The notes under the pieces: generated by a model | What the model was told of the DNA's origin: nothing | The model's database searches: none | What the model saw: only the letters and a program-made list of their open reading frames with translations | Made by a program: the position numbers and the translations under genes | Assembly: GCA_903844645.1 (NCBI GenBank) | Contig: CAIMUP010000013.1 | Location: 1,428-65,427 of the forward strand | Length of the DNA: 64,000 nucleotides | Reading direction: 5' to 3' | DNA from: an uncultured Bacteroidota bacterium | GTDB taxonomy: Bacteria; Bacteroidota; Bacteroidia; AKYH767-A; JABDAW01 | Shown here: piece by piece, positions 1,856 to 62,239 of the stretch | Layout: each line of letters opens with the position of its first letter | Numbering within the stretch: the stretch's first letter is position 1

Positions 1856-2047
1856 GATTATTAGCGGAGCTCGAATAGGTATTAGAGGAGCTCAAATGGT
1901 TATTAGAGGAGCTCGAATAGGTATTAGAGGAGTTCGAATAGGTATTAGAGGAGTTCGAATAGGTATTAGAGGAGCTCTAATAGGTATTAGAGGAGCTCAA
2001 ATAGGTATTGGAAGAGCTCAAATAGGTATTAGAGGAGCTCAAATTCC
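1856..2047. repeat. 21-bp tandem repeat, about 9 copies (unit AGGTATTAGAGGAGCTCGAAT)
   Basis: Direct reading gives units at 1877+21k with single-base variants (ctcAaat, gTtcgaat, ctcTaat, ttgGaaG). The array fills the gap between the TonB receptor stop (TAA 1789-1791) and the next gene start (ATG 2078). Confidence 0.92.
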
Positions 2048-4043: not shown

Positions 4044-4357
4044 GGCATTAGGAAAAAAAGCAGGGCATCAAATTACCCAATTTCATACCTTAAGTTTTTG
4101 CTCAAGGCATCACATTACCCGATGTGTGGGGTTGAGCAAAAACTTAATGCTTCACATCATCCAATTTGGAGGTATGGGAAAAAAAGTAATGCCCCACATT
4201 ACCCGATTTTGGGGTATGGCAAAAAACCTAATGCCCCACATTACCCAATGTGATGGTATGGCAAAAAACCTAATGCCCCACCTTACCCAATGCGGGGGTA
4301 TGAGCAAAAAAGTAGTGCCTCACATTACCTAATGTGGGGGTGTGATTTTCAATACAT
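4044..4357. repeat. 42-bp (2x21) tandem repeat, about 7 copies, each unit carrying a short hairpin (CCCCACATT-ACCC-AATGTGGGG type)
   Basis: The homologous 5-mer 'GGCAT/TGCNT' recurs at 4064, 4106, 4148, 4190, 4232, 4274 and 4316, exactly 42 bp apart; the ~4044 copy is only 20 bp upstream, i.e. partial. Units are degenerate but clearly homologous. The array lies in the convergent gap between trxB (+) and the symporter (-). Confidence 0.88.
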
Positions 4358-8652: not shown

Positions 8653-8721
8653 AAAAATAAAATGAAAAACTATTGCTTTCGGTTTAGGAAAAATGCAGGG
8701 CGGTTTAGCTTTTATATTGAC

Positions 8722-8931
8722 CTGTTTAAAGTTTATGTCGGTCTGTTTAAAGTTTGTATCGGTCTGTTTAAAGTTTAAACAGGTCTGTTTAAAGTTTGTA
8801 TCGGTCTGTTTAAAGTTTAAACAGGTCTGTTTAAAGTTTAAACAGGTCTGTTTAAAGTTTGTATCGGTCTGTTTAAAGTTTAAACAGACCTGTTTAAAAT
8901 TTGTACAGACCTGTTTAAAAACTATATTGAC
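8722..8931. repeat. 21-bp tandem repeat, 10 copies, with alternating units CTGTTTAAAGTTTGTATCGGT and CTGTTTAAAGTTTAAACAGGT
   Basis: 'CTGTTTAAA' begins at 8722, 8743, 8764, ..., 8911, exactly 21 bp apart. The second unit type contains the 19-bp palindrome CTGTTTAAAgTTTAAACAG (GTTTAAAC core). Confidence 0.92.
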
Positions 8932-15334: not shown

Positions 15335-15546
15335 GATGGTGGCAAAGAAAGGAAATTCGTGGGGCAGGGATGGAAAACTTTTTTTTCAGAGAATTGTATT
15401 TCTCCACTATTTTTAGTATCATTGCAACCTCGAACAAAAAATGAAGCCTCAAAACACATATAATAATCTCGCAAATCTCTCCAATAATTTTGGAGGTGGG
15501 GCTTGCATATTAAATAGAGTTTGTGTAAACTCGAAGCCGCCTCAAT

Positions 15547-15577
<31 letters not shown>

Positions 15578-15721
15578 CAAATTTTTTGAAATAACCAAAT
15601 CGGAGAACACTTTTTCTGGTTCGGTTCAAAAAATTTCGTTTTCCTTTTCTAATCTTTCATTAAAGTTTCCAAAAATTTCCGCGATTTTTCAGGAATCTTG
15701 GTCAAGTCGCCAGAGTTTTGA

Positions 15722-15950
15722 CCAAAGTTTCATACGCCCCAGCCAAAGTGTGCCGAACTTCAGCCAAAGTTTTGGAAACTTTGACCAAAGTCCAGCGACT
15801 TTGACCAAAGTAGATGAAGATTCGGTTGAGGTTTCTGAAACTTTGACCAAAGTGGGCTTCACCGTGGTCAAAGTTTCTGCTTTCTCGCCCAAAGTTTCCG
15901 GAAATTCCTCCAAAGTTTCCCAAAAATCCCCCAAAGTTTCTGAAACTTCG
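15722..15950. repeat. degenerate 21-bp phased repeat, about 11 units, each anchored on CCAAAGT(T)
   Basis: 'CCAAAG' recurs at 15722, 15743, 15764, 15785, 15806, 15847, 15868, 15889, 15910 and 15931, all on a 21-bp lattice with one unit skipped. The region is open in frames on both strands. Confidence 0.85.
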
Positions 15951-16076
15951 GGACCTGTAGGAAGAATATTGGCTGTAAATCAGTCCATTTCTTTCCTGAC
16001 TTCGATTTTCGAGGTCCTTTTACAAAATCCCGCTAACGGAATCCAAATAGAAATTTAATAACTTAATAAATAAACT

Positions 16077-28646: not shown

Positions 28647-28854
28647 TTCACCCTTTTGAGGGATTGTTTTAGGAACTAATACCTTGTAATTTTGCATCCT
28701 TAATTACAAACAATGGATCATTACAATCACATAGCGAATACAACGGATAGCAATCACGACAGAGGCAATGCTTCTGGAAGGTTTTTCAATGGTGGCGGTA
28801 GTGATATGGATACAAATTGTAGTTTAAACATATGCCAAAAAAACTCAAACATAT

Positions 28855-29094
28855 CTTTTAGTAACAATAAGATACCTTTTAGTAACAATAAGATACCTTT
28901 TAGTAACAATAAGATACCTTTTAGTAACAATAAGATACCTTTTAGTAACATAAAGATATGTTTTAGTAACAAAAAGATACCTTTTAGTAACAAAAAGATA
29001 CCTTTTAGTAACAAAAAGATACCTTTTAGTAACAAAAAGATATGTTTTAGTAACAAAAAGATACCTTTTAGTAACAATAAGATATGTTTTAGTT
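28855..29094. repeat. 21-bp tandem repeat, about 11.5 copies (unit CTTTTAGTAACAATAAGATAC, variants AAAAAGATAC / GATATGT)
   Basis: Units start at 28855+21k, checked at 28876; read directly. The array is stop-free in several frames, which produces spurious heptad ORFs on both strands. Confidence 0.92.
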
Positions 29095-29205
29095 TTTCTC
29101 ACCATAGTAAAAGCAATAGTTGCTATGGTGATGGGTCTTTTCAGAATGCCCACCCCTCTCCCTTGTATTCAAAACCAAGTAGTAACATAATAAAATAACA
29201 ATAAA

Positions 29206-32103: not shown

Positions 32104-34497
32104 TTATGCCTTATTCAAGGCAACGATAGCATCGTAGATGTCCTCGGTATTAGGCTTCGAGAAATAATCTCCATCAGAGCCGTAAGCAGGACGATGCGGG
32201 TGCGAAGTCATAGTTATTGGCGCAGCATCGAGGTAGCGATAACCATTCTGGAGTTCCAAAACTTGTTGCATCATATAAGCAGTGGCGCCACCAGGTACAT
32301 CTTCATCGAGAAAGAGAATCTTGTTCGTCTTTTTAAGGGAGTTCACAATGCTGCCGTGTATATCAAAAGGCAAAAGAGATTGTACATCTATCAGTTCGCA
32401 GGAGATATTGGCTTGTTGCAGTTGCTTCACGGCATCTTGTGCAATGCGACACATCGAACCATAAGTAACTATGGTAATATCACTACCCTCGCAAAGGATT
32501 TCAGGAACACCTATCGGGACTTTATAATCACCAAGATTGCTTGGAAGTTTCTCCTTCAAACGATAGCCATTTAATGGCTCGATAATAAGGCACGCATCGT
32601 CAGAAGCAAGCATGGTATTGTAGAAACCAGCAGCTTGCGTCATGTTGCGAGGCACTAAAATATAGATGCCACGCAGTGCATTAATAATCATACCCATTGG
32701 GGAGCCGGAATGCCATATCCCTTCCAGCCGATGACCTCTTGTTCTGATGATAACAGGTGCTTTCTGACCACCTTTGGTACGGTATTGCAGCGTGGCGAGA
32801 TCATCGCTAAGGATTTGTATTGCGTAAAGCAAATAATCAAGATACTGTATCTCGGCAATAGGTCTCAAACCCCGCATGGCAAGCCCTATTCCCTGCCCTG
32901 CAATAGTCGCTTCACGAATGCCGGTATCGGTAACTCGTATCTCGCCATATTTTTCTTGCATACCAGCAAATCCTTGGTTCACATCGCCTATCTTTCCGAG
33001 GTCTTCACCAAATGCAAGGACGAGCGGATTGTTCTTAAAGATAACATCGAAGTTGGCTTGCAGAATTTCACGACCATCCATCATTGGGGCATCATCGTTA
33101 TAGGTAGCCTTCACTTCTTTAATGTTTAATGCAGCATCTTTTGATTGGCTATGAAGATAGGAATTGTATCTATCGGAGTTCTGTTCTTTGGCTTTGTTAT
33201 TCCATTTTGTTAAAGCATCTTTTGCAACACTGTTTTCATTCTCTATTAATCTCAAAACCTTCTTTACAGAGGACATTACTTCTCTCCGAGATGGATCAAT
33301 GAAGGTGGTGAGTTCATTCTTTATCTTATTAATGAAAGCCGCATTGATACTGGCTTTCGCAATGTCATCAAAGAGAGAACTTATCTCTGCTATCTCTGCT
33401 TTTATGGGATTATTAAAGTCTTCCCAAGCCTTCTTTTTGCATTCTAAGACATACCTCTTTGCATCATATTCTATAGTATGTAATTCTTCTTCTGTAGCGA
33501 TGGTATTTGCGAGTATCCATTCCTTAAACTTCTTGATGCAATCGAAATCTTCTTCCCATGTAAGCCTGTCTTTTCCTTTATATCTTTCATGAGAGCCTGA
33601 TGTCGAATGCCCCTGTGGCTGTGTCATCTCTTGCACATGGAAGATGGCAGGGATATGTTGCTCCCGACAGATGGCAATACCCTTCTCATACATCTCGCAG
33701 AGTGCTGCATAGTCCCAACCTTTGCAGGTGTAGATGTAATATCCATCCTTATCATCGGTCTTTTCAAAGCCTTTGAGGACTTCTGATATACTGTCTTTCG
33801 TGGTTTGATATTTACGCGAAACAGAGATACCATAACCGTCATCCCAAATAGAAATAGCCATCGGAACTTGCAACACTCCGGCTGCATTAATGGTTTCATA
33901 AAAGATTCCTTCACTCGTGCTGGCATCTCCTATGGTGCCAAAAGCAACTTCATTTCCATCAATAGAAAAGTCGGTATAAGGTTTTAATTCAGGATTGTTT
34001 CGATAGATCTTTGAGGCATACGCAAGCCCTAATAATCGTGGCATCTGGGAGCCTGTGGGAGATATATCGGCAGAGGAATTCTTCATCGCAGTCAATTGTT
34101 TCCAGCTTCCATCAGAGTTTAATGACCTCGTTCCGAAGTGTCCATTCATGCTTCTGCCTGCTGATGCCGGCTCCAATTCTACTGAAGGATTGGCATATAA
34201 TTGTGCAAAGAATTCGGTGATGGAATACTGCTTGATGGCGAACATAAAGGTCTGGTCGCGGTAATATCCCGAACGAAAGTCGCCATCCTTGAAAGCCTTT
34301 GCCATCGCGACTTGTGCCAACTCTTTTCCATCGCCAAAGATGCCGAACTTAGCCTTGCCGGTAAGCACTTCTTTTCTTCCCAAGAGGCTTGCTTGCCGGC
34401 TTTCATTCACTAATTTATAATCCTCTAAAACGGTCTTCTTAAATTCGTCGAACGACAGATCTTTGGTCGCCTCTTTTACTTTATTTTCCTTAGCCAT
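32104..34497 (-). CDS. 2-oxoacid dehydrogenase E1 component, fused alpha+beta subunits (TPP-dependent, transketolase-like)
   Basis: 797 aa: the N-terminal half has the TPP-binding E1-alpha fold; the C-terminal half has the E1-beta pyrimidine-binding domain ('LGEDLGKIGDVNQGFAGMQEKYGEIRVTDTGI') and transketolase C-terminal domains. Confidence 0.8.
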   Translation of the reverse strand: MAKENKVKEATKDLSFDEFKKTVLEDYKLVNESRQASLLGRKEVLTGKAKFGIFGDGKELAQVAMAKAFKDGDFRSGYYRDQTFMFAIKQYSITEFFAQLYANPSVELEPASAGRSMNGHFGTRSLNSDGSWKQLTAMKNSSADISPTGSQMPRLLGLAYASKIYRNNPELKPYTDFSIDGNEVAFGTIGDASTSEGIFYETINAAGVLQVPMAISIWDDGYGISVSRKYQTTKDSISEVLKGFEKTDDKDGYYIYTCKGWDYAALCEMYEKGIAICREQHIPAIFHVQEMTQPQGHSTSGSHERYKGKDRLTWEEDFDCIKKFKEWILANTIATEEELHTIEYDAKRYVLECKKKAWEDFNNPIKAEIAEISSLFDDIAKASINAAFINKIKNELTTFIDPSRREVMSSVKKVLRLIENENSVAKDALTKWNNKAKEQNSDRYNSYLHSQSKDAALNIKEVKATYNDDAPMMDGREILQANFDVIFKNNPLVLAFGEDLGKIGDVNQGFAGMQEKYGEIRVTDTGIREATIAGQGIGLAMRGLRPIAEIQYLDYLLYAIQILSDDLATLQYRTKGGQKAPVIIRTRGHRLEGIWHSGSPMGMIINALRGIYILVPRNMTQAAGFYNTMLASDDACLIIEPLNGYRLKEKLPSNLGDYKVPIGVPEILCEGSDITIVTYGSMCRIAQDAVKQLQQANISCELIDVQSLLPFDIHGSIVNSLKKTNKILFLDEDVPGGATAYMMQQVLELQNGYRYLDAAPITMTSHPHRPAYGSDGDYFSKPNTEDIYDAIVALNKA

Positions 34498-34679
34498 TGC
34501 CTTTTAATTATGAAATGCAAAAATAGAAAAATTATGTTTCATTAAACAAATGCTACCAAGAATTGTATTCCTTTTATTGTTGCTCCCCAAAGGTCGCAAT
34601 CATAAAAGGAACGTAATGAAACATTTATTTTCCGCCAATTAGGATTCCCTCAAAGCGCATTAATACCCCTATTTTTCCC

Positions 34680-34866
34680 AATGTACACGTGTACAATTCG
34701 TCCTGCAACTGTGTCGGAGGCAATGTTCGGTGTACTTTGCCCCAACACAGTTGTGTTTGCCAATTCTACATGTGTACTATTGGCAAACACAGTTACTTTT
34801 GCAGAAGTACACGTGTAGAATTGGCAAACACAACTGTGTTTGCCAAATGTACACGTGTACATTCAA
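34680..34866. promoter_or_regulatory. cluster of alternating perfect palindromes (TGTACACGTGTACA and TTGGCAAACACAACTGTGTTTGCCAA) in a divergent promoter region
   Basis: A 14-bp perfect palindrome at 34682-34695 and again at about 34849-34862 with degenerate copies between; a 26-bp perfect palindrome at 34821-34846 with half-copies at 34745-34764 and 34781-34795; GTGTAC cores about 41 bp apart. Confidence 0.6.
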
Positions 34867-35028
34867 AATCGCCTTATAAAATCACCCTTTTCTGTTTAAT
34901 CAAATGAAACAAAGGATGCCAATCGGGTAGAATCACTCCTTATATATAGGTGTATTATTCGTTTTCTCTTTTCGGGGAATGCCGCCTTTCATCCTTTTAT
35001 CCCTATTTTTAGTATTTTCGCCCCTCGT

Positions 35029-35292
35029 ATGGCAAGATTTATCCTTATATTATTGATTATTTACGTCCTCTTCCGATTGTTTCGGCGGAGTATCTTTGTA
35101 TATACCGTCAATTCGTTTCAGAATAAGATGGAAGAACAAATGCGGAAACAACAACAACAACAAAAGAAAGAATATCAACAACAACAACGCCAAACAAATG
35201 GTAAAACCAAAGTCGAATTCATCCCTCCCGAGAAAAATAAACGCCCCCACGATACCGATGGTGAATATGTGGATTACGAAGAAATAAAATAA
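35029..35292 (+). CDS. small membrane-anchored protein, DUF4834-like
   Basis: 87 aa; N-terminal TM helix 'FILILLIIYVLFRLF' then a Gln/Lys/Glu-rich tail. The family call is from memory. Confidence 0.4.
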   Translation: MARFILILLIIYVLFRLFRRSIFVYTVNSFQNKMEEQMRKQQQQQKKEYQQQQRQTNGKTKVEFIPPEKNKRPHDTDGEYVDYEEIK

Positions 35293-35323
35293 CCGACTTC
35301 CCTTTTATAAAACAAGATATAGT

Positions 35324-37846
35324 ATGAATAAAAACCTCAAAAACCAACTGATAAAACACGCATTAGTAGTTATGGGATTCATCGCCATAACGATGATTTA
35401 CTTCTCCCCATTGATGGAGAACAAAGAACTGAAACAAGGCGATATAGACCACTGGTATGGCGGCGCAAAAGAGATTCTCGATTTCCGCAAAACACACAAT
35501 GCAGAAGCCCTCTGGACGAACTCCATGTTCGGCGGAATGCCAGCCTATCAAATCTCGGTGCTGTATCCCTCAAACCTGATACAGTATGTGAATAAAGCAC
35601 TGACTTTCGGCATCCCGAACCCCGCAAATTATATGTTTTTATACTTCCTCGGCTTCTATCTTTTGCTCTTGGTCATGAAGATAGATTGGCGGCTTGCGGC
35701 ATTAGGAGCTATTGCGTTTGGGCTGTCGTCTTATCTAATAATCATCATCGAAGCAGGGCATAATACCAAGGCAGAGGCAGTAGGATATATGGCTCCCGTA
35801 CTGGCAGGCATCATCCTGACCTATCGCGGAAGATTCCTGATAGGCGGGGCATTAACAGCATTGGCGATGGCGTTGGAAATTAATTCAAACCATCCGCAAG
35901 TAACGTATTATTTGTTCATGATTATCGGATTGATGCTCGCCGTACAACTTTATACCACCTGGAAAGAGAAGGCATGGAAAACTTTTATCACTGCATCAGG
36001 AATTGTAGGCGTGGTAACGGTATTGGCAGTGCTGACCAGCATCACAAGCCTCTGGGCAACGGCAGATTATGGCAAATATTCCACCCGTGGACAGAGCGAG
36101 TTGGCAGCTAAGAAATCATCTACTGGATTGGATAGGGATTATGTCTTCGGATGGAGCTACGGTAATGCCGAAGCATGGACGTTGTTGGTATCTAATTTCA
36201 AGGGTGGAAGCAGTTCCTGGCCCCTCGGTAAAGATGAAAGTACGTTAGAGAAAGTAAGTCCTAATTACCGTCAAAACATTGCGCAATTCCCTTCTTACTG
36301 GGGCGATCAGCAGTTCACCTCCGGTCCGGTGTATGTCGGGGCGATCATTTGTTTTCTGTTCTTCTTAGGATTATTAATAGTGGATGGGAATGACAGGTGG
36401 TGGTTGCTCGGAGCGACTATCCTTTCTATCGTATTGGCATGGGGAAAGAATTTTCCGGCATTTAATTATTGGATGTTCGATCACTTTCCGGCATACAACA
36501 AGTTCCGTTCGGTAACCATAGCATTAATCATTGCCGAGTTTGCGATGCCGATATTGGCTATCCTCGCATTAAATAAAATACTTAATACCCCGAAATTATT
36601 AGAGACAAAACGTAAGCAATTATTCATCGGGATGGGCGTGGCATTGGGGATAACCATTCTCATCGCCGTATCGCCAACCATGTTTGGGGATGTATATAAA
36701 GCCAACGAATACGAACAACTGAAAGGCGAGATTAAAAAACAAGGAGCGAACGATACCCAAGCCGTCGAGTTCTTGGATAATATCGAGATTGCGCGTAAGG
36801 CGGTGCTGTCTGCCGATGCGTGGAGGAGTTTTATATTTATTGCCCTGGCATGCGGGATGATATATGCCTTTACCCGATTCAAATTCAAGAAAGAATACCT
36901 GATAGTGGGCGTAGGATTATTGATAGTTGTAGATTTATGGGCGGTAGATAAACGGTATTTGAATGATAAGGATTTCGTGGAGGTGAAACATGCCGGAGTG
37001 CCGTACGAACCGCATAAGGTGGATCAGGAAATCCTGAAAGATCCTTCGCCGAATTATAGGGTGATGAACTTGCAAGACCCCTTCAACGATGCCCGAACGA
37101 GCTACTTCCATAAATCTATCGGGGGGTATCACGGAGCTAAATTGAAGCGCATCAAAGAACTCATTGATTACCGCCTCGACCCGGAAGTACAGATGATAAT
37201 AGCCTCCTTCAAATCGAAAGATCCGGCAACGATTGACAGAGCTATCGCGAGTGCCACGTGCATCAATATGCTGAATGGAAAATATATTATCTATAGCCAG
37301 GATGCCCCGCCGTTGCCGAATCAACATGCGTTGGGGAATTGCTGGTTTGTGAAGAACTTCAAGATGGTTGCCAATGCCGATTCAGAGATTAATGCTATGG
37401 GGACTTTCGACCCTGCTACATCTGCCGTGGTTGATCATCGGTTCATGCCTTTGGTGGAGGCAATTCATCCTATGTTTGATTCCACGGCGACCATTAAATT
37501 AACCAGCTATCAACCCAATGATTTGAATTATGAATCTAAAGCATCCACAGAGCAACTCGCCGTCTTCTCCGAGATATACTTCGATGGGGGCTGGAATGCT
37601 TATATTGACGGGAAGCTGACCCCTTACTTCCGCACCGATTATTTATTGCGGGGCATGAGTGTTCCGGCAGGGTCGCATAAGATAGAATTCAAGTTTGAGC
37701 CGACACTTTATTCCACTGGGGAACATATTTCCTTGGTCAGTTCCTTGCTATTATTAATCCTGGTGGGCGGGGTTTCCTTCAAATTCATCAAAGAAAAATT
37801 GGCAGAACCAGAGCCGCAATCACAGCCCAAGGCGATGAAGAAATAG
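35324..37846 (+). CDS. YfhO-family polytopic membrane protein
   Basis: 840 aa; N-terminal multi-TM domain, large extracytoplasmic C-terminal domain and final TM helix, matching YfhO architecture. Confidence 0.7.
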   Translation: MNKNLKNQLIKHALVVMGFIAITMIYFSPLMENKELKQGDIDHWYGGAKEILDFRKTHNAEALWTNSMFGGMPAYQISVLYPSNLIQYVNKALTFGIPNPANYMFLYFLGFYLLLLVMKIDWRLAALGAIAFGLSSYLIIIIEAGHNTKAEAVGYMAPVLAGIILTYRGRFLIGGALTALAMALEINSNHPQVTYYLFMIIGLMLAVQLYTTWKEKAWKTFITASGIVGVVTVLAVLTSITSLWATADYGKYSTRGQSELAAKKSSTGLDRDYVFGWSYGNAEAWTLLVSNFKGGSSSWPLGKDESTLEKVSPNYRQNIAQFPSYWGDQQFTSGPVYVGAIICFLFFLGLLIVDGNDRWWLLGATILSIVLAWGKNFPAFNYWMFDHFPAYNKFRSVTIALIIAEFAMPILAILALNKILNTPKLLETKRKQLFIGMGVALGITILIAVSPTMFGDVYKANEYEQLKGEIKKQGANDTQAVEFLDNIEIARKAVLSADAWRSFIFIALACGMIYAFTRFKFKKEYLIVGVGLLIVVDLWAVDKRYLNDKDFVEVKHAGVPYEPHKVDQEILKDPSPNYRVMNLQDPFNDARTSYFHKSIGGYHGAKLKRIKELIDYRLDPEVQMIIASFKSKDPATIDRAIASATCINMLNGKYIIYSQDAPPLPNQHALGNCWFVKNFKMVANADSEINAMGTFDPATSAVVDHRFMPLVEAIHPMFDSTATIKLTSYQPNDLNYESKASTEQLAVFSEIYFDGGWNAYIDGKLTPYFRTDYLLRGMSVPAGSHKIEFKFEPTLYSTGEHISLVSSLLLLILVGGVSFKFIKEKLAEPEPQSQPKAMKK

Positions 37847-37950
37847 GTTGAATATTTCATTCCAAAAGAAAGCCCTCCCGACATAAAATTGGGAGGGCTT
37901 CTTTTTTTAGCTAAAAGGACGATTTGGGAAGCCCGAAAAATTTTTCCGCT

Positions 37951-38202
37951 ATGAATATCTTTTGCTTCGGGATGAATATCCTTTGCTTCGGGATGAATAT
38001 CCTTTGCTTCGGGATGAATATCCTTTGCTTCGGGGTGAATATCTTTTGCTTCGGGGTGAATATCTTTTGCTTCGGGATGAATATCCTTTGCTTCGGGATG
38101 AATATCCTTTGCTTCGGGATGAATATCTTTTGCTTCGGGATGAATATCTTTTGCATCGGGATGAATATCTTTTCATCCGGCTTCAATACATTTTCATCCC
38201 GG
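37951..38202. repeat. 21-bp tandem repeat, 12 copies (unit ATGAATATCCTTTGCTTCGGG, variant ATCTTTTGCTTCGGGGTGA)
   Basis: 'ATGAATATC' begins at 37951, 37972, ..., 38161, exactly 21 bp apart. Confidence 0.92.
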
Positions 38203-38398
38203 GTTAATGTCTTACATGAACTTTTCCCCGTTATAAAACCCGATTTGGAGGGGTAAAAAGGGAGGTTTTTGGAAATTCTCCACCCTCCATTTCCCACTTT
38301 TAAGTCTCCATTCCCCATTTTCCATTCCCCATTCTTTTTCCATTGTCAGGAAATTTTATAGTTTTGCCCGCCTAACACTAAAATTATATCATAAAATA

Positions 38399-41284: not shown

Positions 41285-41445
41285 TACGACTACAATGATG
41301 CCGTCATCTCCTACAATGATAGCGTCATCTACTACAATTATGCCGTCATCTACTACAATTATGCCGTCATCTACTACAATGATGGCGTCATCTACTACAA
41401 TTATGCCGTCATCTACTACAATGATGGCAACTTCGACTACACATT
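41285..41445. repeat. 21-bp tandem repeat, about 7.5 copies (unit GCCGTCATCTACTACAATTAT/GAT)
   Basis: 'CGTCATCT' occurs at 41302, 41323 and 41344+21k. The array fills the gap between the 40406 gene (stop 41251) and the 41460 gene. Confidence 0.92.
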
Positions 41446-43867: not shown

Positions 43868-44153
43868 ACGGCTGTTGATTGGAGAAAGTCGGCTGTTGAT
43901 TGGGGAAAGTTGACTGTTGATTGGGGAAAGTCGGCTGTTGATTGGGGAAAGTCGGCTGTTGATTGGGGAAAGTTGACTGTTGATTGGGGAAAGTCGGCTG
44001 TTGATTGGGGAAAGTCGGCTGTTGATTGGGGAAACATGGACGTAGATTGGGGAAACATGGACGTAGATTGCGGAAACATGGACGTAGATTGGGGAAACAT
44101 GGAGGTAGATTGTAGAAACATGGAGGTAGATTGCAGAAACATGGAGGTAGATG
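43868..44153. repeat. 21-bp tandem repeat, about 13.5 copies (units GTCGGCTGTTGATTGGGGAAA / GTTGACTGTTGATTGGGGAAA, decaying into CATGGACGTAGATTGGGGAAA and CATGGAGGTAGATTGCAGAAA)
   Basis: Unit starts at 43888 and 43909+21k; two clear sub-families within one array. Confidence 0.92.
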
Positions 44154-49925: not shown

Positions 49926-50165
49926 GCCGACCGGATTTGGGAAAGATGCGGTCGGATATTTCCTTTCTCCGGTCGGATATTTCTTTTTTCCGGTCGGATA
50001 TTTCTTTTTTCCGGTCGGATATTTCTTTTTTCCGGTCGGATATTTCTTTTTTCCGGTCGGATATTTCCTTTTTCCGGTCGGAGATTTCTTTTTTCCGGTC
50101 GGAGATTTCCTGTTTCCGGTCGGAGATTTCCTTTTTCCGGTCGGATATTTCCCGTTACCGACCAT
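49926..50165. repeat. 21-bp tandem repeat, about 11 copies (unit CCGGTCGGATATTTCTTTTTT, with GAGATTTC variants)
   Basis: 'CGGTCGG' occurs at 49948, 49969+21k; it begins immediately after the dgkA stop. Confidence 0.92.
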
Positions 50166-50299: not shown

Positions 50300-51691
<1,392 letters not shown>

Positions 51692-51721: not shown

Positions 51722-52849
51722 ATGGAAATAACAATCAAAAAAGTCGAAAACGGAGCCGATAAGAAGAAGTTTATTGACTTCGTTCATGATTTATATGCCG
51801 ATGATCCGAACTATGTGCCTGAACTTTACATGGCGCAAAGCGATTTGATGAATCCTAAGAAGAATCCTTTCTTTTGGCATTCCAAGGCGGATCTTTTTCT
51901 TGCTGAACGCGATGGAAAAGTGGTAGGAAGAATCGCCGCCATAAGGAATAATAATTATAATGAATACGCGAAAACCAAAGTCGGCTTCTTCGGGTTCTTC
52001 GATGTTATAAATGATTATGAAGTGGCTAAGAAATTACTCGATACCGCTAACGATTGGATTAAAAAGGAAGGCTTGACGGACATTATAGGACCTACAAATT
52101 TCTCTACCAATGAAACTTGCGGCTTATTAGTAGAAGGTTTGGATTCTGCGCCTGTAATTATGATGACTTATAACAAGGCTTATTACAAAACCTTCTTAGA
52201 TAAATATGGTTTTACTAAGCAAATGGACCTGATTGCATACGTCCTGGACCCGATGGATATGCCGGAAAAGCTATTGCGATTAGCAAAAGGGATTGAGGAG
52301 CGTTTGAAGAGAAGAAACATTACCGTCCGCAAGATAAATATGAAGGATTTTAACAACGAAGTAGCCAAAGTAAAGGAAATTTATAATGCTGCCTGGGATA
52401 AAAATTGGGGTTTTGTGCCGATGACGGATGACGAATTCAAATTCCAGGCTAAGGATATGAAAATGATATTAGATAAAGACTTCGCGTATGTAGCCGAAGA
52501 CAACGGAAAGGTCATCGCGTTCTCATTAACTATTCCGAATGTGAACGAGGTGTTCAAAACCATCAAGCGGGGCAGGTTATTCCCGACGGGGCTGTTAAAA
52601 TTAGTATTAAATAAGAGCAAAATATCCAGCGTACGTGTGATTACATTGGGGGTGTTGGAGGAATATCGGAAGCTGGGTATAGACGTCGTGTTTTATGCTA
52701 AGAACATGGAAACCGCCCAACAGAAAAAACTTAAATATGCAGAGGCTTCCTGGATTTTAGAGAACAATAAGGAGATGAATTCTCCCTTAATTTCCATCAA
52801 TGCGAAGCCTTATAAAACATATCGTATCTTTGAGAAGAAGATAGTATGA
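51722..52849 (+). CDS. hypothetical protein, possibly a GNAT-fold N-acyltransferase
   Basis: 375 aa; 'VGRIAAIRNN...VGFFGFFDV' resembles a GNAT beta4-alpha3 motif; weak. Confidence 0.45.
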   Translation: MEITIKKVENGADKKKFIDFVHDLYADDPNYVPELYMAQSDLMNPKKNPFFWHSKADLFLAERDGKVVGRIAAIRNNNYNEYAKTKVGFFGFFDVINDYEVAKKLLDTANDWIKKEGLTDIIGPTNFSTNETCGLLVEGLDSAPVIMMTYNKAYYKTFLDKYGFTKQMDLIAYVLDPMDMPEKLLRLAKGIEERLKRRNITVRKINMKDFNNEVAKVKEIYNAAWDKNWGFVPMTDDEFKFQAKDMKMILDKDFAYVAEDNGKVIAFSLTIPNVNEVFKTIKRGRLFPTGLLKLVLNKSKISSVRVITLGVLEEYRKLGIDVVFYAKNMETAQQKKLKYAEASWILENNKEMNSPLISINAKPYKTYRIFEKKIV

Positions 52850-54368: not shown

Positions 54369-54775
54369 CCGTCATCATATATGAAAACGGACAATCGTAA
54401 TAGTTATTATTGTATTAACTATTGTAATTATTGCTTTAGCAATAGTAAATATGACCATAACGATACCTTGGGCGATATTTTCTATCGTTACTGCAATAAT
54501 AACATATGTAAAAGGTATCCTTAGGATACCAATTATACGTTTTCATATATGATGACGGACGAAAAGGATAGTAAAAGCTGTTATCACGATAGTTATTGTT
54601 GTTATCACAATGGTAAAAGCGGTTATCACAATAGTTATTGCTGTTATCACAATAGTTATTGTAGTTATCACAATAGTTATTGCAGCTATTACAATTGTAA
54701 AAGCAGTTATTATAATAGCTATAACAGTATTCACGATAGCGATGACAAAAACTGTAAGTACATTCATTAGTAATA
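54369..54775. repeat. AT-rich degenerate 21-bp phased repeats (GTTATCACAATAGTTATTGCT-like) with a 21-bp inverted-repeat pair and a central 17-bp palindrome
   Basis: CCGTCATCATATATGAAAACG at 54369-54389 is the exact reverse complement of 54538-54558; palindrome GGTATCCTTAGGATACC at 54514-54530; 21-bp period clearest at 54579-54720. No convincing CDS lies between 53854 and 54978. Confidence 0.8.
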
Positions 54776-54978
54776 CCATATAAATAGCACAATAGATGAA
54801 GAAATTAAAGGTAAAACGGATGGTTTATATCAGGATTAATGATGTCCCTGACACCCGAATGGTGATTCTTTCCATGTTCCTGACAGGTTTTTTCACCTGA
54901 TAGGTTTTGAGAATTGGAATTCCTATCGTTTCATCAGGTTTTGGGATTACAATTTGGAGGGAAAGGCTTCCTTTTTTA

Positions 54979-57781: not shown

Positions 57782-58020
57782 ATAATTTGGGGCGAAATTA
57801 GTATAATTAAGGATAATAATATGATGAAGTATTTGATAAAAATAAGGATGACAAAAGGAATGCTACACGACAAATTATTTTTTCATAAACTTCAGATTCA
57901 TCTACTAAATGACTACAATTTTTATCTAATAATTTGGAGAATTAATGCCTGCAAAACGGAACAAATTAAGAGCATAAAAATGTGGCTTCTTTGGAATAAA
58001 ATTCTGAATAAGAGGGATTC

Positions 58021-58152
58021 CGACTCGGCTGCGAATGATTTCGTCGTGACTGCGACTATTTTCATCATGACTGCGACCATTTCCGACTAGATTGCGACTA
58101 TTTTCATCGTGACTGCGACCATTTCCGACTAGATTGCGACCATTTTCATCGG
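58021..58152. repeat. 21-bp tandem repeat, 6 copies (alternating TGACTGCGACCATTTCCGACT / AGATTGCGACTATTTTCATCG)
   Basis: 'TGCG' at 58030, 58051, 58072, 58093, 58114 and 58135. The array lies between the co-directional DPP-IV and TPR-membrane genes. Confidence 0.9.
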
Positions 58153-61932: not shown

Positions 61933-62239
61933 AAAGTCGAGATATTGAAACAATGAATCGTACCCATTAACCACTTAATTGAAGTGAAAGACTATTTTAG
62001 TATAATGAATGACTCATTAAGTATAATGAAAGACTATTTTAGTATAATGAATGACTAAAACACTAATATGAAAGACTAATTACCAGACATGAAAGACCAC
62101 TTCATGTCTGGCAATTAGTCTTTCATATTAGTGAATTAGTCTTTTACCTTAATAAAGTAGTTAATCATTATACTAAAATAGTCTTTCACTTCAATTAAGT
62201 GGTTAATGGGTACGATTCATTGTTTCAAGGTCTCGACTT
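61933..62239. repeat. about 307-bp palindromic element: 73-bp terminal inverted repeats (2 mismatches), internal 21-bp phased TGAA(A/T)GAC repeats, and a central 73-bp palindrome with a CCAGACATG...CATGTCTGG hairpin
   Basis: Left arm 61933-62008 is the reverse complement of right arm 62165-62239. Inner inverted repeat CACTAATATGAAAGACTAATT (62061-62081) pairs with AATTAGTCTTTCATATTAGTG (62113-62133). TGAA(A/T)GAC recurs every 21-22 bp, spacings read 22/21/21/21/21. Confidence 0.9.

Follow-up and report, generated by a model that had tools for sequence, protein, structure and literature searches.

The palindromes between the divergently transcribed E1 dehydrogenase and DUF4834 genes are the junctions of a single tandem array. 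This array is a dyad-symmetric member of a known repeat class, and it lies in a clade where array density is extraordinary and turnover is fast. As the overall explanation, we favor, at slightly better than an even chance, a locally amplified array that is constrained to 21 bp and acts as a phase-locked protein platform.

The window, i.e., the whole stretch of 64,000 nucleotides that was analyzed, comes from an uncultured freshwater Bacteroidota, and the exact E1 protein is found only on metagenome contigs of lake samples. Lake metagenomes that contain this population include ERZ18667851, ERZ18667900 and ERZ1426548. The gap between the two divergent genes measures 531 bp, in agreement with the 530 bp given in an earlier note on this DNA. 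The array is inside this gap, with about 150-330 bp between it and the start codons of E1 and DUF4834, and there is no regulator gene among the adjoining genes. The array and its surroundings are as follows.

34682..34861, no strand: whole array, 180 bp; about 4.4 units of 41-42 bp, i.e., eight alternately inverted 21-bp half-units
32104..34497, minus strand: E1 gene, a fused 2-oxoacid dehydrogenase E1 alpha/beta of 797 aa (Pfam E1_dh, Transket_pyr, Transketolase_C)
35029-35292, plus strand: DUF4834 gene, divergent from E1
35324-37846, plus strand: yfhO gene, encoding a YfhO-like membrane protein; second gene of the DUF4834-yfhO pair (35029..37846)
about 37870-37908: intrinsic-terminator-like hairpin, 3' of yfhO and before the next 21-bp array (37951-38213)

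Since the terminator-like hairpin precedes the 37951-38213 array, this neighboring array lies between transcription units, at that site at least. L001 and L002, metagenome assemblies that are independent of each other, have the same sequence for the target array, which rules out an assembly artefact. The feature described in the earlier note is real, with two exact copies of TGTACACGTGTACA and further degenerate copies in phase with them.

When the array is cut at its dyad centres and alternate pieces are reverse-complemented, the pieces align as eight copies of a 21-bp half-unit, GTGTACAWTTGGCAAACACAR. The 14-mer is the head-to-head junction of this half-unit and the 26-mer is its tail-to-tail junction. 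The successive junctions, to none of which a strand is assigned, are listed below.

34682..34695: TGTACACGTGTACA, perfect 14-bp palindrome; head-to-head junction, dyad 34688.5
34697..34723: TTCGTCCTGCAACTGTGTCGGAGGCAA, decayed tail-to-tail junction; its left half GTGTACAATTCGTCCTGCAA is similar to the unit GTGTACACGTCCGTGCAA of the L168 array
34724..34736: TGTTCGGTGTACT, strongly decayed copy of the 14-mer, dyad near 34730
34737..34763: TTGCCCCAACACAGTTGTGTTTGCCAA, decayed junction of the 26-mer type, dyad 34750.5
34765..34778: TCTACATGTGTACT, degenerate 14-mer with 3 mismatches; dyad 34771.5, the midpoint of the two perfect 14-mers
34780..34806: TTGGCAAACACAGTTACTTTTGCAGAA, decayed junction of the 26-mer type
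34806..34819: AGTACACGTGTAGA, degenerate 14-mer with 2 mismatches, dyad 34812.5
34821..34846: TTGGCAAACACAACTGTGTTTGCCAA, the sole intact tail-to-tail junction; 12-bp arms TTGGCAAACACA and TGTGTTTGCCAA around AC, dyad 34833.5
34848..34861: second perfect copy of TGTACACGTGTACA, dyad 34854.5; it grows to an 18-bp perfect palindrome at 34846-34863

In any 42-bp repeat that is its own reverse complement, two kinds of dyad necessarily alternate at a distance of half a period, so the two palindromes are not independent motifs. The earlier note had proposed two regulators or a composite site. The composite site stands, while two regulators are unnecessary and not supported, since both palindromes are junctions of one half-unit. 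The 14-bp palindromes at the two ends of the array are perfect, and the inner copies are degenerate. The 26-bp palindrome, described as perfect, is not: the central AC of TTGGCAAACACAACTGTGTTTGCCAA is non-palindromic, 2 positions differ from its own reverse complement, and the other three copies are decayed. The spacing of roughly 41 bp and its tie to a 2x21 periodicity are both borne out by the measurements. Start-to-start spacings of the 14-mer are 83, 41 and 42 bp, Tandem Repeats Finder (TRF) gives a period of 41, and dyad centres (34688.5, 34730, 34750.5, 34771.5, 34812.5, 34833.5 and 34854.5) fall every 20.5-21 bp. The centres of the 14-mer and the 26-mer are 21 bp apart, or about two helical turns, which puts them on one face of the helix.

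The symmetry of the array is well beyond chance. Its reverse-complement self-identity is 0.71, compared with 0.44 +/- 0.03 in column-permuted controls, none of which (0/200) reaches 0.71. The array is homogeneous in its right half but decayed in its left half. If up to 3 mismatches are allowed, the 14-mer matches at 4 places in the window, where 1.02 would be expected, and all of them are within the 180 bp. The window holds 6 perfect palindromes of 14 bp versus 5.2 +/- 2.1 in shuffles, so one alone is ordinary. What is non-random is the repetition in phase, together with the 12+2+12 inverted repeat, which has no counterpart elsewhere in the window.

The array is non-coding and intergenic. A 70-aa ORF (34650-34862) coincides with it, for which no Pfam match is on record in the metagenome annotation, and the 41/42-bp spacing breaks any reading frame. 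A coding origin of the period (21 nt being 7 codons) was rejected, as codon-like variation is absent in 22 of 23 arrays and only the array at 54568 shows it (p = 0.003). A CRISPR array was also rejected, since both alternating segments are themselves repeated and unique spacers are absent. A replication origin with iterons did not hold either: DnaA-box-like matches number 24 against 19.4 expected, with none in the gap, the flanking genes are E1 and DUF4834, and the window has no clear GC skew switch. The AA/TT dinucleotides of the units are not helically phased (z = 0.00 on average across 27 units; z = -1.1 for the target), and thus the simplest version of intrinsic curvature is not supported.

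The target array is one of many. TRF detects arrays with periods of 21, 42 or 63 and mutually unrelated units in no fewer than 14 places of the 64-kb window (1859-2044, 4111-4341, 8711-8919, 28847-29093, 37951-38213, 41289-41426, 43869-44152, 49949-50152, 51563-51690, 54568-54722, 58018-58151 and 61985-62200, plus several shorter sites). On a crude ORF map of the window, 13 of the 16 gaps that are 170 bp or longer contain arrays and the shorter gaps contain none, and arrays occupy tandem, convergent and divergent gaps alike. Their combined length of about 2.6 kb is roughly 30% of the non-coding DNA. Across the clade set (the window, L003, L005, L006, L007 and L168), the density is 19.9 arrays per 100 kb; in 2.1 Mb of sequence from Bacteroidota outside the clade, it is 0.7 per 100 kb. 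Of the 30 clade arrays, 28 are in the 21-bp family. The similarity of units between loci is no higher than in shuffled controls. Dyad symmetry is a feature of a part of the arrays: 8 of 24, the target included, beat all 200 column-permuted controls. Some arrays, such as those at 43869-44152 and L168:3061-3270, combine a constant core of about 11 bp with a switching segment of about 10 bp. In L001 a scaffold gap (a run of N) falls inside the array at 37951, and the L004 and L007 sequences end inside arrays. As nearly every long gap has a 21-bp-period array of its own sequence, one dedicated regulator per array is implausible.

These arrays turn over fast at fixed positions between near-identical relatives. 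The YfhO proteins of L007 (MAG Umea1_bin-0439) and L168 are 99% identical. Their arrays at two fixed positions, one downstream of cinA and the other upstream of DUF4834, are only 41-44% identical, compared with 80-88% for the flanks. Both keep the exact 21-bp register, although indels have to be introduced to align their units best. The array that follows yfhO, a third one, has hardly changed between them. A 12-mer, GCCAAATGTACA, is common to the target and the L007 array downstream of cinA.

The site upstream of DUF4834-yfhO is occupied by arrays in some relatives and empty in others. The two sister-species cases are the following.

L007, YfhO 72% identical: direct 21-bp array upstream of DUF4834-yfhO, 9.3 copies, unit GCTAACACGTGTGAGGGTGTT
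L168 and L169, YfhO 71% identical: 21/42-bp array upstream of DUF4834-yfhO, core ACGTCCGTGTA and GTGTACACGT variants

The sister species (L007, and L168/L169) has ACACGT-core arrays at the orthologous site. Over all loci, ACACGT occurs two or more times in 4 of 64 array entries, two of which are the same array in L003 and L004, whose sequences are identical. This leaves three distinct ACACGT-bearing arrays, and two of them (the target and L007) are upstream of DUF4834. When the target is aligned to the L007 and L168 arrays, 15-20 of 300 column permutations reach the observed score (p about 0.05). Since this permutation support is marginal, we regard the target as only probably homologous to these two arrays. 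Given the ACACGT arrays of the sister species, a locus-specific protein site at the CACGTG core is conceivable. There is no array upstream of DUF4834-yfhO in L167 (YfhO 77% identical) or in L087 and L088 (65%). The closest YfhO relatives (84%) are P0122 and P0241, both represented by gene maps only. In P0122 the gap upstream of DUF4834 is just 186 bp, which leaves no room for an array, so the closest relative seems to be without one at this locus.

We assign the target with high confidence to the class of tandem repeats described by Subirana and Messeguer, which have a constant size of 20-21 nt and a variable sequence, and are non-coding and species-specific (PMC8161180). A few related repeats of 40-41 nt are noted alongside this class, whose length corresponds to two helical turns (PMC8161180). 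The target has the features of the class: a period of 41 with dyads 20.5-21 bp apart, many other arrays of the same length and different sequence around it, and a non-coding, species-specific sequence. Thus, it resembles the repeats of Subirana and Messeguer in being tandem and intergenic, with a 21-nt period and a sequence that varies by locus and by species. It differs in that the half-units alternate in orientation, giving a dyad-symmetric 41-42-bp repeat, and in its host, a freshwater Bacteroidota known from uncultured material. The density also differs and is far higher here: there are about 14 array loci in 64 kb, whereas the Bacillus species listed as rich in 21-nt repeats have 22-29 of them in a genome of 4.4-5.5 Mb (PMC8161180, Table 4), though the detection criteria are not the same. 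A further difference is that, in near-identical relatives, one array is seen to have taken the place of another at fixed positions. Some of these points may already be described by the same authors (J Bacteriol 2020). Subirana and Messeguer state that the function is unknown, and they propose, without evidence, nucleoid-protein polymerisation or small RNAs (PMC8161180). Our literature searches found no later explanation of the class.

Two other systems are similar in part. Plasmid iterons and ParR-bound parC sites (repeats of 10-11 or 20 bp) share with the target tandem units of about 20 bp and sites on one face of the helix. However, a replicon has just one of those arrays, adjoining the rep or par gene that goes with it, whereas the target has no such gene or DnaA-box cluster next to it and the clade arrays are in nearly every long gap of a chromosome. 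The repeat units of Borgs have many different lengths, whereas the period here is locked at 21, 42 or 63. In a preprint (bioRxiv 10.1101/2022.05.18.492195), the tandem repeats of these Methanoperedens extrachromosomal elements are described as pervasive, fast-evolving, locally formed and intergenic, and on that description they are like the clade arrays.

In the explanation that we favor, slipped-strand or unequal exchange would amplify the array locally, both giving rise to it and renewing it. The right half is homogeneous and looks young, while the decayed left half, with its resemblance to the L168 unit, looks old. The 21-bp period would be maintained by a ruler or a constraint. The array would thereby offer identical dyad-symmetric sites, one every two turns, to a cooperative and probably dimeric DNA-binding protein. 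At this locus, its role may be architectural, or that of an insulator, between the divergent promoters of E1 and DUF4834-yfhO, rather than that of an on/off operator for two dedicated regulators. The functional part of this proposal, a platform for protein binding that is locked in helical phase, is more tentative than the whole, and we put it somewhat below an even chance. Because unit sequences differ between loci, a single sequence-specific binder cannot serve all arrays, and a non-specific binder has no obvious need for repeats, which counts against the platform. The arrays in convergent gaps, where no promoter is expected, also count against it, as do the fast turnover and the seeming lack of an array in P0122; these last three points fit a functionless by-product equally well. 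The perfect 14-mers at the ends, retained while the inner copies decay, are a hint of site-specific constraint that a generic model does not predict.

The strongest competitor is that the arrays are a functionless satellite, with the anatomy and origin unchanged. They would be the by-product of a clade-specific mutational process, in which about 21 bp of any sequence at hand is duplicated, and would be tolerated in intergenic DNA only, with no role for the flanking genes. We regard this as unlikely on balance, though well worth weighing. It accounts for the occupation of gaps of every orientation and for the restriction to long gaps, which the arrays themselves lengthen. It is also consistent with the unrelated unit sequences between loci, the divergence of the L007 and L168 arrays relative to their flanks, the confinement of array enrichment to the clade, the short gap of P0122 and the absence of A-tract phasing. 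However, no mechanism is known that would act as a 21-bp ruler, and bacterial deletion bias should purge useless DNA, yet arrays make up about 30% of the non-coding DNA here. Against it as well are the persistence of a related ACACGT-core array at the orthologous locus in a species whose YfhO is only about 72% identical, the exact 21-bp period of both the L007 and L168 arrays despite the indels in the best alignment of their units, and the report of the 20-21-nt length across phyla (PMC8161180).

Bolder than the platform is the idea that the clade has a dedicated 21-bp molecular-ruler system, and that the CACGTG-core array is kept across species for a locus-specific role. We consider this doubtful. 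Such a ruler could be a cooperative protein with a 21-bp pitch, for which the arrays would be loading or insulating platforms between transcription units. Alternatively, it could be an enzyme that repeatedly duplicates exactly 21 bp in place, for example through staggered cuts of the kind by which the repeat is duplicated in CRISPR integration.

A gene-specific operator cluster was the reading of the earlier note. Here, the 14-bp and 26-bp palindromes would be the targets of one or two dimeric transcription factors that regulate either E1 or DUF4834-yfhO, or both, possibly with looping between the two perfect 14-mers, which are 166 bp apart. In its favor, the 14-mers at the array ends are perfect while the inner copies are not, and the ACACGT core is found again in L007 and L168, in arrays that precede the orthologous DUF4834-yfhO pair. 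TGTAC-N4-GTACA, which we take to have the 5-4-5 geometry of Crp/Fnr-family sites, likewise gives a perfect 14-bp dyad of the right size for a dimeric regulator. Unlike the operators of such regulators, the sites here are part of a decaying tandem array, do not recur and lie off the likely core promoters. Neither palindrome has another copy in the 64-kb window (the 14-mer was sought with up to 3 mismatches). The half-unit GTGTACAWTTGGCAAACACAR was not found beyond same-strain contigs among 170 loci from relatives, and the 26-mer has no exact match in 185,579 species-representative genomes, a collection without the source genome. Over this window and these collections, the palindrome search that the earlier note recommended for defining a regulon pointed to none, and with most long gaps having arrays of their own sequence, a regulon-defining operator is not supported. 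The motif is absent upstream of E1 orthologues that are 87, 83 and 81% identical, where the upstream neighbors differ, so that the comparison is an indirect one; the locus with the E1 of 89% identity (L170) has just 80 nt of upstream sequence. The loci of these E1 relatives (81-87%) also carry 21/42-bp arrays, and in L005 one of them is directly upstream of E1. With the motif missing upstream of DUF4834-yfhO in L087, L088 and L167 as well, no adjacent regulator gene, unrelated arrays in nearly every long gap and a homology to the L007 and L168 arrays that is marginal, we find an operator improbable.

The promoter candidates also place the array outside the likely core promoters, at its distance of about 150-330 bp from either start codon. 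The scan used TAnnTTTG, which is presumably the Bacteroidota -7 box, and two matches are near the gene starts.

34518..34525, minus strand: TATTTTTG, exact TAnnTTTG match from a regex scan, about 20 nt upstream of the E1 start, outside the array; likely the E1 core promoter element, judging by motif and position
35004..35011, plus strand: TATTTTTA, relaxed -7-like match about 18 nt upstream of the DUF4834 start, outside the array; putative promoter element

Exact TAnnTTTG matches inside the array (34794 on the plus strand, 34851 on the minus strand) were not taken as promoters. Sigma-70-type promoter-like sites are at chance level.

Highly improbable is a transcribed structured RNA, i.e., a small RNA or a long 5' leader with stacked hairpins that would act in cis or in trans. 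The hairpin potential is certainly very strong: as single-stranded DNA, the array folds at -60.6 kcal/mol (z = -12). There is also a precedent in the 52-nt repeats of B. coagulans, which Subirana and Messeguer report to be transcribed (PMC8161180, PMC8625621). However, this large hairpin or cruciform potential is demanded by the symmetry of the array, which is at the DNA level, so that both strands fold equally well, and arrays without fold symmetry are equally common. Rfam 15 has no match at gathering thresholds in the whole window, and over the array only generic miRNA-hairpin matches are found, far below threshold and on both strands. Further, the candidate -7 boxes of both genes sit between the array and the genes, and a terminator scan found no terminator-like site in the array region.

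Least credible is the insertion, between the two genes, of a mobile palindromic element of the REP/BIME or MITE type. REP/BIME elements are imperfect palindromic units that alternate in intergenic clusters, with architectural proteins (gyrase, IHF) as proposed binders, and the target resembles these enterobacterial elements, such as the BIMEs of E. coli, in its alternately oriented units. But such elements are dispersed multi-copy families, and BIMEs are one genome-wide sequence family tied to RAYT transposases, whereas the target sequence is unique to its locus, with no second copy in 64 kb or in 170 loci, a 21-bp period is the rule, and terminal inverted repeats with a target-site duplication are not evident.

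The findings from this study bear on how intergenic DNA in this clade is annotated and understood. Seen out of context, the cluster of palindromes has the look of a textbook operator, and annotators or motif hunters could take it for a regulon signal. The arrays also spawn spurious ORFs, and gene callers have already placed one of 70 aa on the target. In addition, they break short-read assemblies, as the gap in L001 and the ends of L004 and L007 illustrate. Since period and position are kept while the sequence is replaced, this clade is well suited to asking what fixes the 20-21-nt length, for which a protein ruler, DNA geometry and the duplication mechanism are the candidates. If the ruler reading is true, the 'enigmatic' repeat class would become a defined genome-architecture system.

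Tandem arrays with a period of 21, 42 or 63 bp are found in most long gaps of the window: on a crude ORF map, 16 gaps measure 170 bp or more, and 13 of these contain arrays. They occur with any orientation of the neighboring genes, and the unit sequence differs from one array to another. Besides the target array between the divergent E1 and DUF4834-yfhO genes (34682-34861), they include the following.

1859-2044, tandem array
4111-4341, tandem array
8711-8919, tandem array
28847-29093, tandem array
37951-38213, tandem array
41289-41426, tandem array
43869-44152, tandem array
49949-50152, tandem array
51563-51690, tandem array
54568-54722, tandem array
58018-58151, tandem array
61985-62200, tandem array

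Certain arrays take up nearly the whole gap, for example 51563-51690, which lies between a stop codon at 51544 and a start codon at 51722. The array at 4111-4341, in a convergent gap, has a 42-bp period and 5.5 copies, and a CACATT-ACCC-AATGTG hairpin motif is present in every unit. Directly 3' of yfhO, before the following array begins, there is a hairpin with a run of T that clearly resembles an intrinsic terminator (37870-37908, AAAGCCCTCCC...GGGAGGGCTTCTTTTTTT).

Several arrays are crossed by ORFs of 70-161 aa.

34650-34862, minus strand, ORF
37911-38318, minus strand, ORF
28713-29198, plus strand, ORF

The first two appear as genes in the public annotations of metagenomes, where no Pfam hit is recorded for them. 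All three are probably artefacts of repeat units that lack stops. Codon-like, 3-base periodicity of the variation among units was detected in the array at 54568-54722 only (p = 0.003), in which each third column shows no variation. This array sits within a 118-aa ORF (54436-54792, minus strand) in a "gap" of 1125 bp. Instead of being non-coding, it may code for a peptide of heptad repeats. A different type of repeat, a perfect (AC)14 dinucleotide run (15547-15574), lies within the ORF 15441-16058.

TAnnTTTG is the -7 promoter box of Bacteroidota. The junction sequence of the target array, TACATTTGG / TACTTTTGC, fits it at 34794 (plus strand) and 34851 (minus strand). The 12-mer GCCAAATGTACA is common to the target array and the array downstream of cinA in a related locus, L007 (L007:6014-6279), all units of which contain TACATTTG. 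In L007, the Flavo-1 RNA motif (RF01705) occurs four times within 12.5 kb, at 51-56 bits (gathering score, 42), and there is no copy in the window.

L007:42-124, Flavo-1 copy
L007:5872-5953, minus strand, Flavo-1 copy
L007:6357-6438, Flavo-1 copy
L007:9182-9264, Flavo-1 copy

Two of these lie on either side of the cinA-downstream array, both directed outward, and another is located between DUF4834 and the array upstream of that gene.

Because short-read assemblies break or carry N runs within arrays (L001:5900-5989, in an independent metagenome assembly whose target array is identical to that of the window; the starts of L004 and L018; the end of L007), array copy numbers from MAGs are unreliable. 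L007 and a second relative, L168, encode YfhO proteins that are 99% identical, and the flanks of their paired arrays are 80-88% identical. The arrays at the same positions (L007:6014-6279 and L168:262-538; L007:8801-8996 and L168:3061-3270) are 41-44% identical, with an equal 21-bp register in both. In the window, the array at 43869-44152 is a composite, in which nine GATTGGGGAAA+GTCGGCTGTT units are followed by GATTGGGGAAA+CATGGACGTA units. Since the two successive unit types have GATTGGGGAAA in common, the array combines a constant core of 11 bp with a switching segment of 10 bp. It looks as if it had been caught while one unit variant was displacing another, starting at one end.
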